In this document: piece after piece, positions 43,994 through 58,800 of the stretch
Layout of the letters: each line of letters begins with the position of its first letter
Numbering within the stretch: position 1 is the first letter of the stretch
The notes under the pieces: generated by a model
Database searches by the model: none
What the model saw: the letters and a program-made list of their open reading frames with translations, nothing else
What the model was told of the DNA's origin: nothing
Source of the DNA: Podarcis vaucheri
Taxonomy: Eukaryota
DNA: 64,000 nucleotides
Strand: one strand, 5' to 3'
NCBI GenBank assembly: GCA_965113315.1
Contig: OZ220364.1
Made by a program: the position numbers and the translations under genes

Positions 43994-45759
43994 AAATTAA
44001 CAGGGGGGGAACTGAAGCCAAGAACTGTTCACAACATATCCTGATCATGGAAACACCACCATGAATACCTTGTGCCCTGTTGGGAGATGGTTTGTATTTT
44101 GTGGAAAGCCAAGAGCAAGGAGGGGGAGGCGGCGTGGGGGGCGCCAAGGGAGCTGTGTCACCCGCAGGTAATCTGTGCGCCTTTAATCTTCCTCGCGGGC
44201 TCACGGCTCCATCCACCTGCACCGCGTCTCAGCTCGCCGATTGGTATAATGGAACCACATATATTTAGAGAGCACGAGCAACACACTGAGAGGGAGCCTC
44301 AGCTAAAAATATCCATGTGCACAGAGAGATGCAAAGGTGACGCCGAAGCTGGAGAGTCAGATAAAAGGGAAGCTTTCTGTGCGCTGGAAAATTAACATTC
44401 CAGGGCCACGTCACTTTGTGTGCGGCTTCCTATGAGCTTTCCCCTCCCATCGCCACCCCCCTCCCTGGCTTGCTGCCTCCCTCCCACCCACTGCTGAACA
44501 ATCCATCAGGTTTGGAAATCAGGCTGGATGGCACAAGGCACCATCCTGTAATTTCCTTTTAATAATAGATCACAGGAGGATGGGCTCAGCAGCCTTCGCC
44601 TGCTCTTCTGCCTCCTCATTAGCTTTACTACACTTGCTCCATTTAGAAACCAAGCGCAAATTAATGGAGCACTAATCATCTGCAGAAGAGATATTAATAG
44701 TGTGGACCCCCCTCCTCACCCACAGACACCTTTCCTCAGCTTTCACCAAGCTGTTCCAGAAAAGGGGGGAAACGAGCCTCCTCTGTGTGGAGGAATTAAC
44801 AGGTGAGTGCTGGCAGGATACGGAACATCCTGGGCCTGTTTTGCATCTGCCGTAAGGGGCAAAGCACCAGGTAGGCAGGGGCAGGCAAAGGAGATTATTG
44901 GTGTGCGTGTGATTGTCTGCAAGAATTATTGATGTACTGTAGCTTCTTCACTTTGAGACAGTTGCTATATTAGTTTTGTACTTTCTGTGGCAGACCACAT
45001 GTTTCCTGTGCAGAAGAACACGGTCCCACGTTCAATTTTCAGTATCTCTAGTTAGAGACTCTAAGCGCTGAGGCTGAAAAAGAGCATCAGCTGAAACTCT
45101 GGAGAGTGGCTGTTAGTCAGGGGAGATACTATTCAGCCACTGATAGGATGGAGGACCAAACGTGAAGCCTTCAGTGTGTGGTTGCCATTTACATATCTTT
45201 CATTTTAAGAAGAAAAATGTGAAAAAGAAAGAAACAGCTACAGGAGCCCCCAATCCCAATTAGAACTGAAAAGCATGAGGGTGTTAACTCTTGCAATTTT
45301 TCTCCACCCCCCCTCACTATTATCAGCGCTGGATTTAGGGTGGTTCCCCCGCACAGGGCGCTGTGCGAAGGGGGTGCAAAATAACAAATAACAACAACAA
45401 AAAACCTATTTATTATATAGGGAGTGGCCCCCAAAACACTTCTTGGGGCAAATCACAGTTTGGGATGAATTATTTTATCAGCAAAACTGTGCTGGGGTGA
45501 GAGAAGGATTAGTTCCCCTCCACTGTACCAGAGTCCTGATCTAGGCTAAGGCTCCCACAGGTGCTATTTTTCTATTTTAAAAAAGTTGAAAGATGTGCAA
45601 CTGTGACCACACATTTACTTTGTGGTCCTACACATTTCTACTCTGTCTGAATTAAATTCTGTGTAATTCAATGGAGCTTACTCTCAGGTAAGTGGATATA
45701 AGAGTGCAGCCCTAACGTATTATCTATTTGGCCTTCAGCATAGAGAGCAGTACAGCATA

Positions 45760-46448
45760 GAGAGCAGTACATGTGAAAAGGATCTAGGAGTCTTGGTTGA
45801 CCACAAACTTGACATGAGCCAACAGTGTGACGCGGCAGCTAAAAAAGCCAATGCAATTCTGGGCTGCATCAATAGGAGTATAGCATCTAGATCAAGGGAA
45901 GTAATAGTGCCACTGTATTCTGCTCTGGTCAGACCTCACCTGGAATACTGGGTCCAGAGTTGGGCATCACAGTTCAAGAAGGACACTGACTAACTGGAAC
46001 GTGTCCAGAGGAGGGCAACCAAAATGGTCAAAGGCCTGGAAATGATGCCTTATGAGGAATGGCTAAGGGAGCTGGGCATGTTTAGCCTGGAGAAGAGGAG
46101 GTTAAGGGGTGATATGATAGCCATGTTCAAATATATAAAAGGATGTCATATAGAGGAAGGAGAAAGGTTGTTTTCTGCTGCTCCAGAGAAGCGGACACGG
46201 AGCAATGGATCCAAACTACAAGAAAGAAGATTCCACCTAAACATTAGGAAGAACTTCCTGACAGTAAGAGCTGTTTGACAGTGGAATTTGCTGCCTAGGA
46301 GTGTGGTGGAGTTTCCTACTTTGGAGGTCTTTAAGCAGAGGCTTGACAACCATATGTCAGGAGTGCTCTGATGGTGTTTCCTGCTTGGCAGGGGTTGGAC
46401 TCGATGGCCCTTGTGGTCTCTTCCAACTCTATGATTCTATGATTCTAT
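45760..46448 (+). mobile_element. 5'-truncated CR1 LINE (end of ORF2 plus 3'UTR)
   Basis: [48 protein letters not shown] peptides with an in-frame stop; (ATTCTATG)n-type tail. Confidence 0.93.
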
Positions 46449-47296
46449 AAGGTGGCTTCATATGTTCCTGGCTGCACTTTGCACAGGAAGCCAAAGGAAG
46501 AAGCCACAAATCCCAACTGTAGCCCAAAACAACTGCTCTTGCAGGTAGCAGGCCATATATTAGTACTTTAGGTCTGAACTGTTCAGACATGCATCCCATT
46601 ATCCCCAGCCAGTTTATCCAATGGTCACAAATGATGGGAGATGTGGTCCAACAATATTTGGGGACCACCTTAGAATAACAAGAGATCACCCTTCACCTTT
46701 CCTTGGACAAATGAAGGCCAGATTTATATGTGTTCTTCCTTCACAGAATCATGAAGGAAACAAACTGATGTTGTGGTGGGGCTTGGCTAGTGAGTCACTG
46801 CTACTTATTGGGAGGGGCACAGTGGTGGTGAGCTGCAAAAACACCAGTGGAGTTCAGTTTGGAACTCCTCCCAGTGCATTTGCATGGTATTGCCCTTCCT
46901 TGTCCCTCCCTCTCCAAGTAAGCAGCGGCAACTCACCTGCCAAGAGGTCAGGTAATGGCCTCCATCCCACCACACTGTCTGCTGCTGACTAGAAATGTTT
47001 TGTCAGAAGACCTGTAAACAGAAAACTACATTCTTCCCTCCTACCTAGGGATCATTCCAGCACAATCCACATGTGCTACATGGATTCCTTCACTGTTCTC
47101 CTTCTCATGAAGAATAATGGCCATAGAATACACTTATTTCCTCTAGAATTGTGTTTCCTCTCTGCAGTGGGCTCCCAGAACCAACATATTGCCAATGACA
47201 GTATTATAGTTGGAGAAAGATACATGCACAATTTGGAAGTTGTGACCCAGAGTAAATTTCCCACAGTGACACAGAGAATCCCACGGCAAAGTGTAC

Positions 47297-47470
47297 CTGA
47301 AAAAGCTCGGAGTCATCTGTACTGTACTGGCTGGACTCTGTTTCAGAGTGCTCGCAACACCACTGCAGCTCATTGAAGCAACTGGCTGAGTCAAAGTCAC
47401 CGGCATCCAACTGGGACAAATCTATCTCCGGGAAATCAGAGTAGAGGTGTTCCTCACCAGACACTTCATA
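47297..47470 (-). CDS. PPARGC1B: PGC-1beta exon 2 ([22 protein letters not shown]...DDSELFQ), 174 nt
   Basis: cag| acceptor, |gtacac donor, phase 0/0; peptide matches the PGC-1beta N-terminus. Confidence 0.96.
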
Positions 47471-49797
47471 CTGTGGATGTAAAAGAGAAAAGGATGGTGA
47501 GCTTGGCTGGCTTGTGAATCCTCGGAAAAACCAAATGACGTCAAATATAATCACACATGCCTTCACAAGGTGTAGATCAGATCACTGGTGTCTTTAAGGG
47601 GTGTCCAAATGGTACACAATAAAAAGCCACACTAACGTGGAGCTAAGAAACCAAAGTCCAAACCTTCCTAAAACAAAGAGGATTTAAAACCACTTGAAGG
47701 CAGGCTGCCACCTGTAGAAAGCCTTCAAGCTCGAAAAAGGCAACAGTTCCACATTTTGTTTATTTACTGAGGTATTTTTAGCCTGTTCTTCAAAAGAATT
47801 CCTTTTACAACAAAACAAAATTTTATAAAATAACCACACTGAAACTAAAAAAAGCAAATTAAAGATGGCAGATATAGTTCTAAATGACTCCCAGTGGCTC
47901 TTTTTCTGACCTGACCTGGTATTACTGATGAAAGGGGATACAGAAATGTTTTAAATAAATACATAAAATTACTGGGAAAATACAACTGAGAGCAGTGTGT
48001 AGTAAGAGTTGTGCCTCTGAAGCAAGCATGTACTGAAGGACATGAATGCTGTAAAATGAGGCATTTCCTGCCCCTCCTCCAATGTATTAAAACTAAAAAT
48101 CCTGAGATTATTTTTCTTTTCCGCATTATTACCTGCTGGTGAATTATAATTATGTCTTACTGGCTTGTCTGCAAGATCAGAATTTAGGTCTATTCTTCTC
48201 ATCCCCCTTCTTAAATTAGAAGTGACAACTTGTACCTGATTGTGATTATTATTTTTGCCGACTTTGAATATGTGCATCAATGCCATTCAAAAGAAACTGA
48301 AGGATAAAGCAAAACAGAGCACTTTCTCCACACTCAACATCTAGTATTTCCATTTGGGAATGATGCTGCAACCTTGGCCAGCTTCGCAAGAAATGCTTGG
48401 GTTTTGTATTTCTAGTACCAACATGATAATACCCTATTATGCAGATTCTAAGATTAACATTTCTGTGCTCTTGGAAATATCACTCCCGCTACCTTCTAGT
48501 GTGCGAGAGGCCAAGCCCCCTGGAGGACAGCCCAGATGCTTTGTTTCCCCATGGCAAAAAAGGAGGAGGAGGTTACTGGTGGGTGACTGACAATATGCAT
48601 CTTTCAAGTCTGTCTCTGTTCAAAGGAACAGGAAAACACCCACCCACCTACCAGCAGATCACTCAGATTAAATGGCTGCATTTCGAGGGACAATCTTTCA
48701 AAATGAATAATGCCCGTTTGATGTATAATTACAAAGATGTGCTTGTGGTGGTTTGCTTTGTTTTGTTTTTCAAGTTCAGAGGAAACAGACATTTTCAACT
48801 TTTCTTGGGACAGTTCCCTTGCTCATGGATCATCACCATGATCCATTGCTAGCCTTCCACGTCCATCTCAAGGTGGTGTACAAATTATACTAAAAACAGC
48901 TAAGGAGAGTTATAAAAATAGCAGAAGACCAGTTCAACCACTGGTGATCTCCTCAGGCAAGACAGACAGTCAGACACACACACACAGACGCCCCCGTACA
49001 CCACCAGAGCAGCTGCATGGCTTCTTAAGGGACACTTAAGCTACTCCAGCCTTTAGTGACGTAATGCGGACATCCAAGGCTTATACTAGTGCCCTGATAG
49101 CCAGCAATTAGGAAGGAAAGGAAGAGGCTTATAGGGTACACCAGACAGTCACGAATCAGGTAAGGCTCTGTAACAGAGGCCTGTGTGCATCTGAAGGTGG
49201 CACTTTTGGCCTGCTGTGCATTCTGGGTCCTGACCACCCCTAACCTCCCCTTTCTTTCTCAGGCCTTCCAGCCCCAGCTCCATTCATCAGCTAAACTTAG
49301 CTCCGCCACGCTCTTGGCAGTGGCAAGCAGGCCTTGGAGCTTCAATATTTCCTCATACCCGTGGCAATCTCTCCTTATAGAAACAAGTTTCTCCAGACAC
49401 CAATTCAATAACAGCTCTAACAATCCATTGTATTCTTCCCCTGCTCCTCAAGCCCAGCCAAAACGAGAGTATAATAGAGCAGAATCAATGGCTGGCGCAT
49501 GTAAGGCAATCTAAGCTCTAAGAACTGAGCTAAAAATATCCAGTCAATCACACAGAGCAGCTGAGACCCGGCCCCATTTCCACCACATTCTCAAGGCATA
49601 CGCAATTGCATTAAACTCCCAACACGGTCGGCGAAAGCGAGTGACCAAGAAGGACACAGTAATGCTGCACTGCACCATTACTGCTAAGCCTACCAAAGGT
49701 CACAGATATGCTGGGGGATGCGGCTTTCGAAGGTCCACGATGCACAAAGGCGGGGGAGGGGGAGGACTGTGATACAGAAGACAAGGCCTGCTCAGAT

Positions 49798-50256
49798 TAG
49801 GGATGGATGAGGGAGAAGGTAGGCTGTCTGGGCTGAAAGGTGAACCTCCCTACTTTGCACTTCCCCAAAGCAGTACACAAGACAGAAGCACAGTTATCCT
49901 CGAAAATCTGCACTCTCCGAATTTTCCAGTGCAGTTCTGCAGCCAAGTAACATGTACTTAATATATACAAAAATGTATATATTAGTAGAACTGACATGGG
50001 TGGTGATGGCAGGTGTGTGTGTGTGGGGGGGGGAATCCATTGTACTAGGAAAATTCCTTTGCAAAAAACCTGTCTCTTAGGCAAAACCACTTACAAAAAT
50101 GTGTCTACTAGTTGAAATTTGCACAGAAATGCTGGTGAATCTTTATGAAACCCTTTTAAAAATCACCATCATCACAAACTGATGTACAAATGTGGGGAAC
50201 AAAACATAAGATTGGAAAAATGAGAAACCTGAAATTGACATATGGGCCCATCCCTA
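49798..50256. mobile_element. Non-autonomous hAT-like element (TIR TAGGGATGG...CCATCCCTA)
   Basis: 9-bp inverted termini; degenerate 8-bp TSD (GCTCAGAT vs GCTCAAGC once the LTR element is removed). Confidence 0.6.
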
Positions 50257-50257
50257 G

Positions 50258-50710
50258 TGTCAGGGAACTGACATCGGAGGAAAGGGAAGTGGTAAGGCTC
50301 CCAGAGACTGGGAGAGAGTCAACAGCCAAAGCAGGGACCAGCAGGGGGAGCGCGGGGTCTCTGGAGGAGGATCTCAGTAATGCTGAGAGACACGCAGCAG
50401 CCCAGGCAGGAAGCAGCAGGGGAGAGAAAGGGGTGAGAGACACTTCGAGCGAAAATAGCGGGGAGGTGTCAGAAGCAACTGCCGGGAGACCCATGCTTCG
50501 CCGGAAGCTGCCACGTCGTGAGTCCAGGAGACGCGTTTCCGTTAAGGAACTTCTTTGCTGGAAGCGCTTCCGCAGACAGCCACTGTCAGACTCTACTAGT
50601 GACTAGAGCAGACATGTCTGAGGAGCTCTGTCACACACAGAGGTTTGTGGGGTCGCACAAACTCTGAAGGGGCACAATTTTAAGCACAAGCAGCTAACCA
50701 TCCCCTGACA
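50258..50710 (+). repeat. 5' LTR (453 bp)
   Basis: Direct repeat of 55377-55829; one difference seen (C50391 vs G55510); 8-bp terminal inverted repeats. Confidence 0.97.
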
Positions 50711-50712
50711 GC

Positions 50713-50723
50713 AGTCTGACAGT
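50713..50723 (+). promoter_or_regulatory. Self-priming primer-binding site (AGTCTGACAGT)
   Basis: Exact reverse complement of LTR 50582-50592 (ACTGTCAGACT); no TGG tRNA-type PBS follows the LTR. Confidence 0.8.
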
Positions 50724-50755
50724 CTCTGTACGCTGCCTGTGCAGGAGAAAGCATC

Positions 50756-51766
50756 ATGAGCAACCCAGTCGGAACCGGAGACGCAGGGGTTGGAGCTGGT
50801 CCAAGCTTGGAAGAAAGGTATCAAGCTCTGGAGGTCCAACTTGCGCTGCAGACGGCGAGGCTCGAGGAGAGAAGGGCTCAGGATGCTGACAAAAAGGGGA
50901 GAACCACTCAGTTCCCCAGAAAGGTACCAGGACTGGTGCAGAAGTTTGGGGGGGACCCCAAGGATTACCATGCCTTTAGGACTGAGATGCAATATGCTCT
51001 GAATGTGCAGTTTGATGAGTTCCCTGATGAGGAATCGCGAGTTGCGTTCGTAATTGGGCATCTTGAGAAGGGGGCGCGGGACTGGGTTCGACCCCTGATG
51101 GCAACGCACAACGATATCCTAAAGGACACTATGAAATTCTTTCGTGCAATGGATATCATGTTTTCCAGCGATATTGAGGAAGGGGTGGTACGCAGACAGC
51201 TAATGGCTTGCAAGCAGGGAAGCAGATCTGTCCGTGAGTACTGGACTGAATTTACCATGCTGATTCACAGATTGGGGTGGGATTTATCGGCGGCACCCAT
51301 TCAGATGCTATTTGAAGAAGGTCTTTCTTCAGCTGTGAAAGACGAGCTGGCCAGGAGCCCCAGGGCGGGGTCTATGGATCAGCTGACCAAATCTGCGCTG
51401 ACCATTGGAGCGCGCCAGGAGGCAAGAGCCTTGGAGAGGCGGGAAGGGAGAGGGGAACGTTGGAAGGAGTTACGCATTCCAGACATTCCTGAGCCAGCTT
51501 TCCCGCCGGCAGAGCCGATGGAAATCGGAACAGCCCGCGCGCGCGCAGTTTCAAAGCCCAGTGAGGGGGCGAAGAAGGAGGGAAAGGGAGCCCGGAAATG
51601 CTATCTCTGCCAACAGCCAGGCCACTTTGCCAGAGTCTGCCCCCAGAGGAAGGAATGGCAAGGGATGGTGGGAGCTGTTGAGGGGGAAGAGCAGGGAGAA
51701 ACGGAGCAGGTAAAAGCCAACGCCTGGTTGCCAGCAGGGCACTGCAGCCAGGCCAAAGAGCAGTGA
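50756..51766 (+). CDS. Retrotransposon Gag (capsid-like domain plus CCHC zinc knuckle), 336 aa
   Basis: ATG 45 nt after the 5' LTR; PEG10/sushi-like KFGGDP..RVAFVIGHL.KGARDW and KQGSRSVREY segments; CYLCQQPGHFARVC knuckle. Confidence 0.95.
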   Translation: MSNPVGTGDAGVGAGPSLEERYQALEVQLALQTARLEERRAQDADKKGRTTQFPRKVPGLVQKFGGDPKDYHAFRTEMQYALNVQFDEFPDEESRVAFVIGHLEKGARDWVRPLMATHNDILKDTMKFFRAMDIMFSSDIEEGVVRRQLMACKQGSRSVREYWTEFTMLIHRLGWDLSAAPIQMLFEEGLSSAVKDELARSPRAGSMDQLTKSALTIGARQEARALERREGRGERWKELRIPDIPEPAFPPAEPMEIGTARARAVSKPSEGAKKEGKGARKCYLCQQPGHFARVCPQRKEWQGMVGAVEGEEQGETEQVKANAWLPAGHCSQAKEQ

Positions 51767-51774
51767 AAGTGCCC
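51709..51774 (+). promoter_or_regulatory. Putative -1 ribosomal frameshift signal (G_GUA_AAA plus H-type pseudoknot)
   Basis: Heptamer in the gag frame, 6-nt spacer, stem 1 at 51722-51731/51744-51753, stem 2 at 51737-51743/51768-51774. Confidence 0.72.
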
Positions 51775-54700
51775 CTTCCCCAAGTGCCAGTGCCAGAAGC
51801 TCCTCGACCTGCTCTAGTGATTGAAGTGTCTCTAGAGCTGCAAAATGGACACCCCCTAAAAATAAAGGCGCTGTTGGACTCAGGCAGCTCCTGCAATTTC
51901 ATGAGCAAGGAGTTTGCTGCTGAGCACCAGATACAGACTATCCCTTTAAGCAACCCCCTGCAGGTGACCACGATTGATGGCAGGGAACTGTTGGGAGGAG
52001 GCGTCAGCTTGCAGACCGTCCCAATGATAATGAGGGTGGCAAGGCACACAGAACTGATAGCGTTTAATGTGGCCACCTTGGGAGGCGCTCCCATTATTTT
52101 GGGAATGAGCTGGCTAGCCCTACATGATCCGCTGGTGGGCTGGCATCAAAGAGTGGTTTCCTTCGGTTCCGCACACTGCTTAGAACACTGCAGGGCGGAA
52201 AAGGGGTCAGCAGGGGCCCAAGCCACCCTAGCAGGGACGGAAGTGATGGAGAAGGGGAAGGTGCCACCACAGTATGCTGATCTCAGCGACGTGTTCAGCG
52301 AGAAGGAAGCGGACCAACTACCCCCGCATAGGCCCTTTGATTGCCAGATCAATTTACTCCCTGGAGCACAGCTTCCTGTAGGCAAGTTGTATGCCATGTC
52401 AGACAGGGAGATGCAGGAGTTGCGAGCGTTCATTGACAAGAACCTGAAGAGAGGCTTCATCAGAGAGTCCAAGGCAGCGGGGGGTAGCCCAGTGTTTTTT
52501 GTGGATAAAAAAAACACGGACAAGCCGAGGCTGGTATGTGACTTTCGGGCCCTAAATGCAGTGACAGAGCCGGCGGCTTTTCCTATGCCCAGGATTGATG
52601 ATATTTTGACCAGGGTGCGAAAAGGAAAGATTTTTACAAAGCTGGACCTAAGGGGGGCGTACAACCTGATACGTATAAGGAAAGGGGATGAATGGAAGAC
52701 CACCATGTTCACCCCTTTGGGGGCATTTGAATACCTCGTTATGCCTTTTGGATTACAAACAGGCTCCGCGTGTTTTCAAGCCTTTATGAACCATGTACTG
52801 GGGCCTTTGCTCTACAAGAATTGCGTGGCCTTCTTAGATGACGTGTTGGTGTATTCGGAGAATGAGGAGCAACATGTGAGAGACGTCAGAGAAGTGTTGA
52901 GCAGGCTGCAAGCCAACAGACTGTGGGTGAAACTGGAGAAGTGTCAGTTTCATACCAAGGAGGTGGAATTCCTGGGGTACCGCTTGTCAGACAAGGGGTT
53001 GGCCATGGACCCCGGCAAGGTTCAAGCGGTGCTGGAATGGAAAACACCCAAGACCAAGAAGGATGTGCAGAGGTTCCTAGGGTTTGGAAACTTTTATCGT
53101 AAGTTCATCCGAAACTTCGCCCACCTGACGGCGCCCATCACGGACTGTCTCAGCAGCAAAAAGAAGTTTGTTTGGACGGGGGAGGCGGAGCGAGCGTTTG
53201 AGGAACTGAAAAGGGCCTTCGCCTCTGACGAACAACTTCTACATGTGGATTTACAAAAAAAGCTGAGGGTCGAAACAGACGCTTCTGACAGAGCCATAGG
53301 GGCGGTGCTTCTTCTGCAGCCGGGGAAGGAGGGGTCAGAGTGGCGACCGTGTGCCTTCTTTTCGCGAAAGCTGAACAAATCTGAGAGAAACTACACGGTG
53401 CACGACCGGGAACTTCTTGCGATTTATGAGGCCTTCCGGAGATGGAGGCACCTACTAATTGGTGCACAACAGAAGGTGCAAGTGTGCACGGACCATAAGA
53501 ATCTAGAGTATTGGAGAACTGCGCGAGTGCTCAACCAAAGGCAGTTGAGATGGGCCCAGGAGTTCTCCAAATTTAACTTTGAGATTTGTTACGTACCAGG
53601 CCCGGAGAACGTTAGGGCGGACGCTCTCTCACGCAAACCTGAATATTTGGAGGGAGAGGGTGCACCCGAAGAGACCCATGTTATTCCCGAGGACCGCTGG
53701 GTGTGTGGGGCGGCTTTGGTGGGGCAAAGGGAACTGGTAGAGGGAACGGTGCAGGATGAATACGCCCAGGACAAACTCAGGGGTCTCAGGAGGGAGGGAG
53801 ACAAACCCGGGGGTTTTGAGGAGAGAAACGGGGCGTTGTACTACAAGGGAGTGTTATACATACCTGAAGGGGAATTGAGGGAAAAGGTACTCAAGCAACT
53901 GCACGATAGCCCCACAGCAGGGCATTTTGGGCAACACAAAACCATGTGGCTGGTTACCAGGGAATTCTGGTGGCCCAAGGTCAGGGAAGATGTGCGTGAA
54001 TATGTGAGAGGGTGTGACCGATGTCAACGAGCCAAGGGGGAGAGGCGGGCACCGGCAGGTTTATTAGAACCACTACCCACGCCGGAAAGACCATGGGAGG
54101 CAGTGGCAATAGATTTCATGACTGATCTGCCCAGGTCCAAAGGGAAGACAGCCATTATGGTTGTGGTAGACCTGTTAACCAAGATGGCCCACTTTATAGC
54201 CTGCTCACATGCGGTCACAGCAGAAGAAACCGCTAAATTGTTTGTGGAAAATGTGTTTAGGTTGCATGGTGCCCCCTTGAGGGTGGTTTCGGACCGAGGG
54301 AAACAATTTACTTCCAGGTTCTGGAGGAAGCTCATGAGCTTATTGCATGTAGAGGTGAATTTTTCCACTGCCCGTCATCCAGAAACCAATGGGCAGGCGG
54401 AAAGAACTAATGGTGTCCTCCAGCAATATTTGAGGTGTTATGTGAATGACAGAGAGAATGATTGGGTGGAGAAGCTGGCGTTGGCAGAATTTGCCTATAA
54501 CAATGCAGAGAACGTGTCCACGGGGATGAGCCCTTTTTTGGCCAATCACGGGTGTCATCCCCGAGCCTTCCCAGGGGGGGAGGGGGAGAACTGGAGCGTT
54601 CCTGCCGCAGAACAGTTCGTTGAAGAAATGGAAGCGATCCATCGCCAGCTCCAACTTAATTTAAACAGGGCGAAGGAGGAATATAAGAGGCAGGCAGACA

Positions 54701-55725
54701 AAACCAGAAGGGAAGGGGAAAGCATTAGGGTGGGGGACCAGGTGTGGCTGTCCACCCAAGGGTTACCATTTAAAGGAGGTTGTAAGAAGTTAAGACCCAA
54801 AAGACTGGGCCCATTTGAAGTCACGCAACAGGTCAACCCAGTGGCTTTCAGACTCCGGTTACCGAACCACATGAAGTTGCACCCAGTGTTCCACAGATCA
54901 TTGCTGTCACCGTATATAGGGGACAGAGAGGGGAGGGTCAATAGGGGACCAGCTATGGAGGAAAAAGAACACAGCTACCATGTAGCGGAGATTCTCGATT
55001 CCAGGTGGAGGGGAGAGCAAGTAGAGTATTTGGTAATGTGGGAAGGGGAGCCGGAGTCGGAAAACACCTGGGTCAGGGCAGAGGATGTAGATGACGAGGT
55101 TTTGATTGAAACTTTTCATCAGAGATTCCCTAGAAAACCCCAGCCAGTGGCAAGGTTCCGGAGGGAATACTTCGCCACCACCGACGACGAAGAAGAGTTG
55201 GAGGGGTTCGCTGATTCCGAGGTGGAGGAGGATTCAGCGAGTCGGAACGAAGACCGATGGAGGGAATTGTTCGAGACGTCTGAAGATGAAGAGGATTCTT
55301 TTAGGGGTTTCAGCTCCTCACCGCCCAGAGGAGAAAGTAGGGGCGGGGGAGAGGGGGGCCCTGGAGGGGAGGTGGATGTCAGGGAACTGACATCGGAGGA
55401 AAGGGAAGTGGTAAGGCTCCCAGAGACTGGGAGAGAGTCAACAGCCAAAGCAGGGACCAGCAGGGGGAGCGCGGGGTCTCTGGAGGAGGATCTCAGTAAT
55501 GCTGAGAGAGACGCAGCAGCCCAGGCAGGAAGCAGCAGGGGAGAGAAAGGGGTGAGAGACACTTCGAGCGAAAATAGCGGGGAGGTGTCAGAAGCAACTG
55601 CCGGGAGACCCATGCTTCGCCGGAAGCTGCCACGTCGTGAGTCCAGGAGACGCGTTTCCGTTAAGGAACTTCTTTGCTGGAAGCGCTTCCGCAGACAGCC
55701 ACTGTCAGACTCTACTAGTGACTAG
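51763..55725 (+). CDS. Retrotransposon Pol (protease, RT, RNase H, integrase, chromodomain, acidic/basic tail); frame open from 51682, probably entered by -1 frameshift
   Basis: LLDSGS protease; MPFGL and FLDD (RT); ETDAS (RNase H); H..H..CDRC and D-D-E integrase; GPF motif; chromodomain YHVAEILDSRWRGEQVEYLVMWEG..ENTW. Confidence 0.96.
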   Translation: MKVPLPQVPVPEAPRPALVIEVSLELQNGHPLKIKALLDSGSSCNFMSKEFAAEHQIQTIPLSNPLQVTTIDGRELLGGGVSLQTVPMIMRVARHTELIAFNVATLGGAPIILGMSWLALHDPLVGWHQRVVSFGSAHCLEHCRAEKGSAGAQATLAGTEVMEKGKVPPQYADLSDVFSEKEADQLPPHRPFDCQINLLPGAQLPVGKLYAMSDREMQELRAFIDKNLKRGFIRESKAAGGSPVFFVDKKNTDKPRLVCDFRALNAVTEPAAFPMPRIDDILTRVRKGKIFTKLDLRGAYNLIRIRKGDEWKTTMFTPLGAFEYLVMPFGLQTGSACFQAFMNHVLGPLLYKNCVAFLDDVLVYSENEEQHVRDVREVLSRLQANRLWVKLEKCQFHTKEVEFLGYRLSDKGLAMDPGKVQAVLEWKTPKTKKDVQRFLGFGNFYRKFIRNFAHLTAPITDCLSSKKKFVWTGEAERAFEELKRAFASDEQLLHVDLQKKLRVETDASDRAIGAVLLLQPGKEGSEWRPCAFFSRKLNKSERNYTVHDRELLAIYEAFRRWRHLLIGAQQKVQVCTDHKNLEYWRTARVLNQRQLRWAQEFSKFNFEICYVPGPENVRADALSRKPEYLEGEGAPEETHVIPEDRWVCGAALVGQRELVEGTVQDEYAQDKLRGLRREGDKPGGFEERNGALYYKGVLYIPEGELREKVLKQLHDSPTAGHFGQHKTMWLVTREFWWPKVREDVREYVRGCDRCQRAKGERRAPAGLLEPLPTPERPWEAVAIDFMTDLPRSKGKTAIMVVVDLLTKMAHFIACSHAVTAEETAKLFVENVFRLHGAPLRVVSDRGKQFTSRFWRKLMSLLHVEVNFSTARHPETNGQAERTNGVLQQYLRCYVNDRENDWVEKLALAEFAYNNAENVSTGMSPFLANHGCHPRAFPGGEGENWSVPAAEQFVEEMEAIHRQLQLNLNRAKEEYKRQADKTRREGESIRVGDQVWLSTQGLPFKGGCKKLRPKRLGPFEVTQQVNPVAFRLRLPNHMKLHPVFHRSLLSPYIGDREGRVNRGPAMEEKEHSYHVAEILDSRWRGEQVEYLVMWEGEPESENTWVRAEDVDDEVLIETFHQRFPRKPQPVARFRREYFATTDDEEELEGFADSEVEEDSASRNEDRWRELFETSEDEEDSFRGFSSSPPRGESRGGGEGGPGGEVDVRELTSEEREVVRLPETGRESTAKAGTSRGSAGSLEEDLSNAERDAAAQAGSSRGEKGVRDTSSENSGEVSEATAGRPMLRRKLPRRESRRRVSVKELLCWKRFRRQPLSDSTSD
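55363..55376 (+). other. Polypurine tract
   Basis: GGAGGGGAGGTGGA immediately before the 3' LTR. Confidence 0.75.
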
Positions 55726-55829
55726 AGCAGACATGTCTGAGGAGCTCTGTCACACACAGAGGTTTGTGGGGTCGCACAAACTCTGAAGGGGCACAATTTT
55801 AAGCACAAGCAGCTAACCATCCCCTGACA
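55377..55829 (+). repeat. 3' LTR (453 bp)
   Basis: Direct repeat of 50258-50710, followed by TSD CCTAG. Confidence 0.97.
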
Positions 55830-58800
55830 CCTAGCTCAAGCAAAGGTTTCTGCAAAATTGTGCCATCGGGCACTACTGACATCTATACCATGCTCAGTGT
55901 AAGGAAGAAACTCTATCTGATGTATAAGAATTTTGCCAACGTTATGACTCCAATTTGTTTCAGTGACATGTGACATGTGATTTTATTGTTCATATTTGAA
56001 TGCTGCTCTTCCTCCAAGACATTCAGGCCAGCATACATGGCACTATCATCTCTTGCAATCTTCAAGTCAACCTTGTGAGGAATGTTAAAACTGAGTAACA
56101 CTCTCATGGCTGAGCGGAGATTTGAATCCAGAGTTCCTCAGTTCACCAGCTAGACTCCATTAGCTGAATTGGACAGACTTGAACACCAAGATTTCCTGCT
56201 TCTCCACAAATGCTTTTTATCTAGCAAAGTACAGCACCGACTGGGAAATTTTTGATCCCAATTTTGCTGGCATCAGTACGTTTACAGTGTTCACTGAATT
56301 CAGCGAGTAGGGTCAGCACTCAGTCCTGCCTTTCTGAGCCAACAAACCCATTCCAGGCAAGCCACCATGGAGCTGGTAGATGATAAAAGCCTTTGTCCTC
56401 ATAATGACCAAGACTAGCATTCAAAACAACCACCAGATAAATGAAAATTCATGAAGCCCTTTTATGTGAAGACCTGCTGATCTTTGGGAGCTTCCTAACA
56501 ATGGGGAGAGCAAATATATTTGTTTTGCATTTAGCTCTCAACTCACAAGATCAACTGAGCATTTGAGAAGCCGTAATGAGAGAATAACATCCAAGGCACT
56601 GCTTTGAAGTTTTCCAAATAGTCTCTCTAGGACTTAACAATCAATTTTCACAAGAAGTTACAGAAACGAAAGAGACAGCATCTCCCCCTCTCCACCCCCT
56701 TCGTTCTGTCTTTATTAACTGGATAATCTCAGATTATAGGGCTTGTTTCCCGCAGGAATGGGACTTTATGTCTTCTCTGCGTTTTCCAATTTAATTTAGG
56801 ACACAGTCTCCACTAACAGTAAATGGTGGGTCCTCCCGCACCTTCTGTACTAGGTGAAAGAAAGGGCAAATGGACCTCAGGTTACGAAGCAAAGGCTGTA
56901 GGGAAGGGTCAGTCTTGGGGCAAGGAAGAGGCCTGGAGACTGGCAGAAAGAGAAAATCGCAATGGAAGAAGGTTGCAAGCTGACCTCCGCCCAACCTGTC
57001 CAGGGCAGGGCAAGCTTCTACCAAGCCACATGGAAAAATGAGCGGATAGGGACTTTTCACGTTATGGAGACACACATCATTGCCAACTAACATCTGCATA
57101 AAAAGCAGCTGCTAAAAGCACTTCAGTGACTATTTGAAAAGGTGGCTACTGGAGGGGTGTGTGGGGAAGCTGGTGGATCCGGAGACTTTTTCTAATCTGC
57201 TACCTTTTCACACACTTCCCTTACTGCATTGTGCATGCAACACACATTTTAGCACTGTTATTTTCTGAAGGAAGTGCGGTTTAGAATCTGCGCAGCCCTT
57301 AAAAATAATTGCCTTTAACCCATCTTGGATTGAGATGGAATTGTTATCATATTGTTTCAATTTACAGTCTAACACAATGTGCTCATGATGAAACTCTCAT
57401 ATAAACCCCAAGGGATTTGCAGGAGATGCATGCTGACAGATCTGTATCTTGTAGCTTTGTTCCGAACCCTTTGTTGCTCTCCCTTGCTCCATTTGTCCAC
57501 AATCCCCTAGTACAAATTGGGTTACTCACCTATTTCCTATTGGGGACCTCTCACCCAGGAACAATACCACCATGGCCCATTTTGGCTATGAGAAACTGTT
57601 CAGTAATTTGCCTGGCTTAATGGTTAATCCAGCCCCCAGTTAGATTCCGATTTCCATCAATATATCTGATTGTCCAGGCCCCCAGCAAATGTATGTTTTC
57701 ATCAAATGCTGTGTTTTTCTTCAAATCTTTCTCAGGGAGTAGAGGTAGACATATTTATTTTTAGAAAAACTTTGAATATGCATTTGCAATTCATACACGA
57801 ACTTCTGCAAAACACTCAGATTCCTCAGTTGTCTTTGATATGTCACTAGGGAAGAGATCCCAGCTCTGCAATCACAAGGTGCAGCTGACGCTAGCACTTG
57901 GGATGTCTTTTGATAATCTCTACAGACGTGACACCTCCCCACTGCCAACAGAATTGGGTATAAATAAACTCCTGCAATCCAATGCCTCTTTGGGCTGCCT
58001 ACATGGCATGCTGAGTTCAGCAGCAAGATTCAGATGGTGCCCTGGCAATGCCATGTTGTTCAAGTCCAGCTCAAGGGTCACCTGGGAGACAAGCAATAGG
58101 GCAGCATACTCCTCAGTGCATGTATGAATCCATCCCAAATCTTCCAAACAACTGTCTGACTGATTGACTCTGGAGGAAAGATTAATGTTTCGGTTATGAG
58201 TGGATAAGTGACATAAATCATCACAGGAAACAGCCACCTAAATCTGTTGATATCACAATAGCTCTCTTGAGAACCAGAACCCACTTTAACCATGTCCTGT
58301 GATACACAACCCACTTTTCTATATTGTTGTTGTTCCTACTGCTACTACTGTATACATCTGTATACAGTAGTATACCTCTTTCCTCTTAATATAATTTGAA
58401 CATCGGGGGGGGGGGGGTAAAGTTAAATGGTGTTGGCACCACTGATGGGACCACTTGAGGTAAAGGCAAGGCCTACTTGAGAGTCCTCTTCCCCTATGGG
58501 CTGAACTACATGCTAGTTGGGGATGATAAGAGCAGAATGCTAGCAATGCCTTGAGGTCCTCAGTTTCTGCATCTTAGACCTTCAGAGTTAAATAAAGGGA
58601 TTCTCTCCAAGCTAATAGTGAGTGCCATTCAGCTGGGGCAGCATAGCCAAGAACTGGACTGGTTAGTTCTGTCAATGAGGTATGTTTCAGTTGCTGGAAG
58701 GATATCTAAATACCAGTTTCCTTCCTCCATTGCTTTGGAAACAAGAAGAAATACACATCTTTGGCTGCATGCCTTGGAAGAAGAAGAACTGAAGCACTTA

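Follow-up and report, generated by a model that had tools for sequence, protein, structure and literature searches.

The window analysed here, a stretch of 64,000 nucleotides of the Podarcis vaucheri genome (contig OZ220364.1), carries a full-length, intact and young LTR retrotransposon between positions 50258 and 55829. This element hosts the gag-pol junction considered below. Its parts are as follows, with the predicted pseudoknot named by its stems and loops.

50253-50257, + strand: 5′ target-site duplication CCTAG, repeated at 55830-55834.
50258-50710, + strand: 5′ LTR of 453 bp with TG...CA ends, one mismatch to the 3′ LTR (99.8% identity).
50582-50592, + strand: predicted self-primer and predicted RNA 5′ end, within the LTR; 11 nt complementary to the primer-binding site.
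50713-50723, + strand: primer-binding site of the self-priming type, complement of the LTR 11-mer at 50582-50592.
50756-51766, + strand: gag ORF of 336 aa, with capsid and a CCHC zinc knuckle (about 51593-51646); Pfam PF03732, PF19259 and PF00098, PDB match to PEG10 (7LGA).
51679-51681, + strand: last upstream stop codon of the pol frame, the 5′ limit for any shift, read from the reading frames.
51682-55725, + strand: pol ORF in the −1 frame, 1347 codons from stop to stop, entering the 3′ LTR (ORF list, Pfam).
51709-51715, + strand: predicted −1 shift site G_GUA_AAA, N_GUA_AAA across the clade described below (sequence and genome copies).
51716-51721, + strand: spacer of 6 nt, GCCAAC, equal in length in all three families.
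51722-51753, + strand: pseudoknot stem 1, loop 1 (51732-51736) and 5′ strand of stem 2 (51737-51743), from sequence pairing.
51754-51767, + strand: pseudoknot loop 3, purine-rich, containing the gag stop TGA (51764-51766), from sequence.
51768-51774, + strand: 3′ strand of stem 2, pairing with 51737-51743.
55363-55376, + strand: polypurine tract, from the sequence immediately 5′ of the 3′ LTR.
55377-55829, + strand: 3′ LTR, 99.8% identical to the 5′ LTR.

The gag frame is open from 50720 to 51766, and the best PDB match of the Gag protein is PEG10 (7LGA, E 2e-4). Pfam domains in pol come in the order protease (catalytic Asp codon at 51877-51879), reverse transcriptase, RNase H, integrase and chromodomain, the chromodomain behind the integrase (PF00385, E 8.5e-12) following the Ty3/gypsy arrangement. 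The PR-RT-RH-IN order, the chromodomain, a CCHC Gag, self-priming and the absence of env are common to this element and to the Tf1/Sushi chromoviruses (Ty3/gypsy, V-clade, e.g. Sushi-ichi); self-priming has been documented for Tf1/Sushi elements (PMC6317226). The self-priming pair, an 11-nt complement, is present in 34 of the 41 long copies that we compared, in three sequence versions. By domain order and self-priming the element is assigned to the Tf1/Sushi group of chromoviruses, the accompanying tree covering copies from this genome only. Among named Pol proteins, the nearest matches bear the label Podarcis muralis.

Several observations concern the element and its surroundings. In loci L099-L135 the three versions of the self-priming pair (50582-50592 and 50713-50723) have both sides altered together. 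The pol ORF extends about 350 nt into the 3′ LTR (55377-55725), so that the LTR also encodes the tail behind the chromodomain. A Podarcis lilfordi protein named "calcium-dependent domain-containing 4C-like" at NCBI (P0017) matches Gag residues 1-56 at 77%; this gene model has probably swallowed a piece of an element. In the window itself, we take 47204-47581 on the − strand to be a host exon, its translation resembling PPARGC1B exon 2, in which case the element would be intronic and antisense to the host gene. Likewise, 45667-45993 on the + strand is presumably the end of a CR1-type LINE ORF2, judging from its translation.

The layout of the junction agrees exactly with the original prediction. 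As it had proposed, pol is in the −1 frame, open from 51682 and overlapping gag to 51766, and it lacks a start of its own, no Met codon being found in the window between the shift site and the catalytic Asp. G_GUA_AAA lies at 51709-51715 in the gag frame and is followed by the 6-nt spacer GCCAAC. The positions claimed for an H-type pseudoknot are also correct: stem 1 would have 10 bp (51722-51731 with 51744-51753, one G-U pair) and stem 2 would have 7 bp, with loops 1, 2 and 3 of 5, 0 and 14 nt. The 6-nt spacer, found in all three families, is inside the canonical range of 5-9 nt given for −1 sites (PMC7618472).

The overlap contains 28 heptamers in the gag frame, of which GTA AAA alone permits re-pairing of an A-site tRNA on AAA or UUU. 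Besides GUA_AAA, no AAA/UUU site in the overlap is common to the clade, and 29 of 59 copies are without any other. Upstream G_GAA_AAG-like sites were considered as a shared shift site and rejected, as they are present in some copies only and absent from the window. With respect to the canonical X_XXY_YYZ, the site has GGU, AGU or UGU in place of XXX in all 59 clade rows, with a match at 1 of 3 bases in the window copy. Its YYYZ is AAAA in 59/59 rows, in keeping with the rule that YYY be AAA or UUU and Z a base other than G.

The 29-mer around the heptamer has 1,397 exact copies in the genome. When the seven bases were freed and the same flanks retained, 1,521 copies were found, 121 of them differing at the first base only and 3 elsewhere; the first base of these variants is A or T among the 100 matches listed, and GTAAAA is kept in 1,518 of the 1,521. 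G_GUA_AAA is not an accident of one copy. In another listing of 100 matches, two carry A_AUA_AAA (G000:C10:6756755 and G000:C17:17204094) and are either single mutants or a small subfamily.

Because these 1,521 young copies tell little about selection, older relatives were collected, by means of three protein queries and by position. A tree of 105 rows, all of them copies of this genome, was then built on 1 kb of pol sequence 3′ of the cassette. These rows are 135 loci and the window, minus 27 near-identical copies of L001-L030 (three were retained) and minus L068-L071, four of the eleven loci returned by a loose pattern, which lack a protease and were set aside as chance hits. All 59 GTAAAA rows fall in one clade, with support 100/100 and a stem of 0.29. 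At the same position the 46 outgroup rows have GGGAAAC (39), GGGAAAT (5), GGGAAAA (1) or GAGAAAC (1), and GGGAAAC is missing from the window's clade. The outgroups belong to two families with 42-77% protease identity, and have the same position, spacer and knot. The suggestion to look in other copies for GGGAAAC or GGTAAAA was thus answered by both, in 39/46 outgroup rows and in 1,397 copies respectively. The reading of the junction as a −1 recoding cassette that resembles PEG10's but has a non-standard site is likewise supported at the sequence level, since outgroups in the same genome have G_GGA_AAC and the same predicted knot there and Gag resembles that of PEG10.

The first base of the heptamer is A in 39, G in 17 and T in 3 rows of the clade. 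Rows chosen by DNA queries spanning the site number 24 of 59; the other 35 came from the protein search, and 34 of these have A and one has G. On the clade tree, position 1 of the heptamer shows 5 changes and positions 2-7 show none; four-fold silent sites in gag have a mean of 3.3 changes, and only 2 of 78 are invariant. The conserved unit is GUA_AAA and the base before it is unconstrained, which is the hexanucleotide pattern NNA_AAR. Copies of the A form and of the U form exist with 99-100% identical LTRs and a long open pol, and the A form recurs in the young subfamily of L119 and L121-L123, whose LTRs are 100% identical. The idea that GGU is a tolerated P-site variant therefore suits the window copy but not the clade, where A_GUA_AAA and U_GUA_AAA do without GGU.

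N_GUA_AAA is likely derived from G_GGA_AAC on the stem branch of the clade. On this same branch XXX was lost and the Asn codon gave way to a Lys codon, and we infer a causal tie between the two from this one event. Val-Lys is kept in four Gags of other assemblies that share 79-93% identity with that of the element, in one case after Pro and not Gln. Among 120 related Gag tails compared by eye as amino acids only, Gly-Asn occurs in 38 and Val-Lys-Ala-Asn, at the corresponding place, only in the four closest relatives. The region 51620-51860 is also covered by four contig runs from other organisms (B, D, E and F).

Other copies and relatives show some peculiarities. Many of the related Gag tails among P0018-P0165 have, by eye, Glu-Asn or Gly-Lys near the end, hinting at further heptamer variants in the group. 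One copy (L126, G000:C1:48559400-48565500) has identical LTRs and an open pol with a pol-frame stop ending 3 nt 5′ of the heptamer; it is one copy only and need not be functional. Two outgroup copies, L041 and L044, have zinc knuckle and protease in a single open frame. Older copies of these families are concentrated on a 41-Mb contig (C41 of G000), possibly a repeat-rich sex chromosome.

We then considered the predicted pseudoknot. Dinucleotide shuffles of the 89 nt downstream of the heptamer gave, in 0 of 20,000 cases, a stem 1 of at least 10 bp with a stem 2 of at least 6 bp at a spacer of 5-9; with looser structure limits 25 of 20,000 passed. The same filter is passed at two further places of the window, 36460 (+) and 29734 (−). 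The nested-fold energy at the junction is not significant (z 0.65, equalled by 151 of 200 shuffles) with a folding program that cannot form pseudoknots, and Rfam returned no family at gathering score at the junction, the best chance matches having E of at least 0.16. A search of each copy from the position of the 6-nt spacer, with at least 7 bp in stem 1 and at least 5 bp in stem 2, extended the pseudoknot prediction to 97 of the 105 rows (54/59, 23/26 and 20/20 in the three groups); it was missed in L067, L073, L076, L089, L092, L098, L102 and L111.

In the farthest family stem 2 occupies the same place with another sequence, and most rows have a U-A pair in stem 1 at a spot that is C-G in the others. 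As a 30-row alignment misplaced the stem 1 of this family, pairing was scored on 23 rows from the two closer families. Paired cells amount to 94.6% in these 23 aligned copies versus 24-45% in slid controls, the slid and shuffle controls being biased upward as the copies are related and the structure was taken from one of them. Two pairs of stem 1 are altered on both sides. In total, 3 pairs show double-sided changes, as many as in 117 of 500 shuffles; 2 of 500 attain the covariation score observed. Within the two closer families stem 2 hardly varies, and paired changes in the knot are also seen within the GUA_AAA clade (L119 group). A conserved H-type pseudoknot, as predicted, thus has good support, short of independent proof and with modest covariation.

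Selection on pol was estimated from 13 copies with a long open frame, over 1,000 pol codons and including G, A and U forms. In all 42 pairs dN/dS is 0.05-0.09, with dS up to 0.75. Purifying selection on pol thus extends to the G, A and U lineages alike, which indicates that Pol is made in all three and that the stretch after the gag stop is read in the pol frame. A Met codon precedes the catalytic Asp in just 4 of 59 clade copies. This selection speaks to the production of Pol and not to the route by which ribosomes enter its frame.

We consider it very probable that the Gag-Pol of this recently multiplied Tf1/Sushi element is made by a −1 shift at N_GUA_AAA, with the predicted knot 6 nt downstream. 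The full reading set out here, with a slip mainly by tRNA-Lys, we put at about 0.65. Most ribosomes would end at the gag TGA inside loop 3. A minority would pause at the knot while the codons GUA (Val) and AAA (Lys) occupy the decoding sites. The tRNA-Lys could then re-pair completely from AAA onto the overlapping AAA, and tRNA-Val would retain one or two pairs at most, none requiring the first base; translation would proceed in the pol frame to give Gag-Pol. Because tRNA-Val would keep so few pairs, none dependent on the first base, the slip would be of the hexanucleotide, or single-tRNA, type, and is probably driven mainly by tRNA-Lys. With a Lys codon in place of the Asn codon, P-site re-pairing would no longer have been needed. 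After a shift, tRNA-Val on GUA meets GGU, AGU or UGU, and the only base with which a G-C pair could form is the freely varying one.

Such slips are described in other systems. At bacterial hexanucleotide sites the 5′ codon ends in A and tRNA-Lys alone re-pairs (PMC5009743). The E. coli tRNA-Lys is reported to slip singly on wheat-germ ribosomes, and tRNA-Asn to require a double slip (PMC5009743; PMC7618472). The evidence for single slips presented in these sources is mostly bacterial, and the precedents involve bacterial tRNA-Lys, mostly on AAG; here a vertebrate tRNA-Lys would slip on AAA. In a human-cell library described in PMC7297798, most single changes in the slippery site abolished the shift, Z = A strongly cut that of SRV-1, and non-canonical patterns worked mostly in their own context only. 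Tetramer sites in E. coli are given as about 10-fold below heptamers (PMC4066793). Because such reporter data from other systems show these motifs to be usually weak, the efficiency of N_GUA_AAA may be low, or may be reliant on some further feature. Moreover, the first two bases of GUA and of AAA may be fixed by the protein (Val-Lys), and pol too encodes the final A; a clean silent site is offered by the third base of GUA alone.

The nearest rival is ordinary tandem −1 slippage in which a poor P-site match is tolerated. The first-base G would pair usefully (GGU), and A and U would be weaker alleles that still give enough Pol. G_GU is indeed a listed exception to X_XX (PMC5009743). G has had two or more origins within the clade and characterises the largest burst; it is the commonest first base in young copies (1,397 of 1,521, against 121), and so may help. 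The copy number of G is, however, confounded with descent. Most older branches have A, as do nearly all the protein-search copies, and its return in the young L119 subfamily, like a first base as changeable as a free silent site (5 changes vs a mean of 3.3), goes against a useful G pair. We regard tandem slippage as unlikely, while according it more weight than any of the explanations that follow.

A second possibility is that GTAAAA serves as a splice donor for a pol-frame AG 13 codons before the catalytic Asp, so that Pol would come from a spliced RNA and the knot would be a relic. The clade did acquire an invariant GT here, the window reads CAG|GTAAAA, a weak donor, and the pol-frame AG at codon −13 is retained in 58 of 59 copies. 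Splice donors without G at +5 usually have G before the GT, however, and in 42 of 59 copies A or T stands there. The putative intron holds the pol frame despite length differences of 3, 15 and 21 nt after the gag stop, and it evolves like coding sequence, with 14 silent versus 4 amino-acid states. It has no pyrimidine tract, its removal would cost the first part of the protease, and the knot shows its paired changes within the clade too. Four contig sets presumed to derive from RNA contain three joints, none of which has GT..AG ends or lies at 51709, but these sets, in short pieces with many mismatching letters, are too fragmented to weigh on splicing or expression either way. Splicing at this place is very improbable.

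We hold it equally hard to believe that the slip occurs one step later, by peptidyl-tRNA-Lys on A_AAA with the A site empty or blocked, a route to the identical protein. A_AAA_GCC would allow 3/3 re-pairing in the P site, and slips of this kind have been modelled for HIV and dnaX with bacterial ribosomes (PMC7618472). The spacer and knot, however, are placed as in the G_GGA_AAC relatives and fit the standard register (5-9 nt), and a P-site-only slip leaves the invariant Val codon unexplained. Lastly, the site might be degenerate and inactive, with Pol supplied by the G_GGA_AAC families of the same genome, by rare in-frame copies such as L041 and L044 or from an independent pol start, the least credible of these readings and one largely refuted by dN/dS, as pol of the clade is under strong purifying selection to dS 0.75, unlike a passenger, and a Met before the Asp is as rare as noted above.

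The single-tRNA slip at N_GUA_AAA can be set against known systems. That gypsy elements use −1 frameshifting at the gag-pol junction is textbook knowledge; this, and the G_GU exceptions, are already known. The cellular genes PEG10, RTL3, PNMA3 and PNMA5 are described with −1 signals composed of G_GGA_AAC and a pseudoknot (PMC11299033, PMC13622457). The lizard junction resembles theirs in being a Sushi-related gag-pol junction with pol in −1, a compact predicted H-type knot (compared by general layout) and a gag stop nearby. It differs in having N_GUA_AAA without XXX, Lys and not Asn at the A site and a free first base, and in belonging to a mobile element, whereas those genes are domesticated. 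The window copy likewise has G_GU at its P-site codon, as do the listed exceptions of phage T7 gene 10, cardioviruses and some luteoviruses (PMC5009743). The cardiovirus site is G_GUU_UUU and is described as requiring the viral protein 2A (PMC7618472), while the second codon of the lizard site is AAA and its G is not kept clade-wide. A further likeness is with bacterial −1 sites, N_NNA_AAG of IS1222 and Bacillus cdd and the Z_ZZN tetramers of IS elements, including A_AAA, at which only the A-site tRNA-Lys re-pairs and the 5′ codon ends in A (PMC5009743, PMC4066793). In contrast to these, the lizard element would work with vertebrate ribosomes, on AAA and not AAG and with an RNA pseudoknot, and its canonical-heptamer ancestry is traceable in the genome. 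Our literature search, in which subscription and older work was thinly covered and a precedent may exist, found no natural vertebrate N_GUA_AAA site derived from G_GGA_AAC in a thriving element, and nothing on a burst of Gypsy LTR retrotransposons in Podarcis.

The element bears on a mechanistic question, that of whether P-site re-pairing is required on eukaryotic ribosomes. One genome offers, in front of one conserved predicted knot, a series of natural sites: G_GGA_AAC, G_GGA_AAA, and GUA_AAA preceded by A, G or U. Because the series shares the knot, and selection indicates that the G, A and U lineages make Pol, the question is testable with natural sequences. The broadest proposition, which we put at even odds, is that a vertebrate lineage passed from a two-tRNA (G_GGA_AAC) to a one-tRNA (N_GUA_AAA) −1 shift with its knot unchanged, and thrived. 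Vertebrate ribosomes would then use hexanucleotide −1 sites productively, and heptamer searches would miss a eukaryotic class of sites. If this is true, filters built on X_XXY_YYZ under-call eukaryotic frameshift sites.
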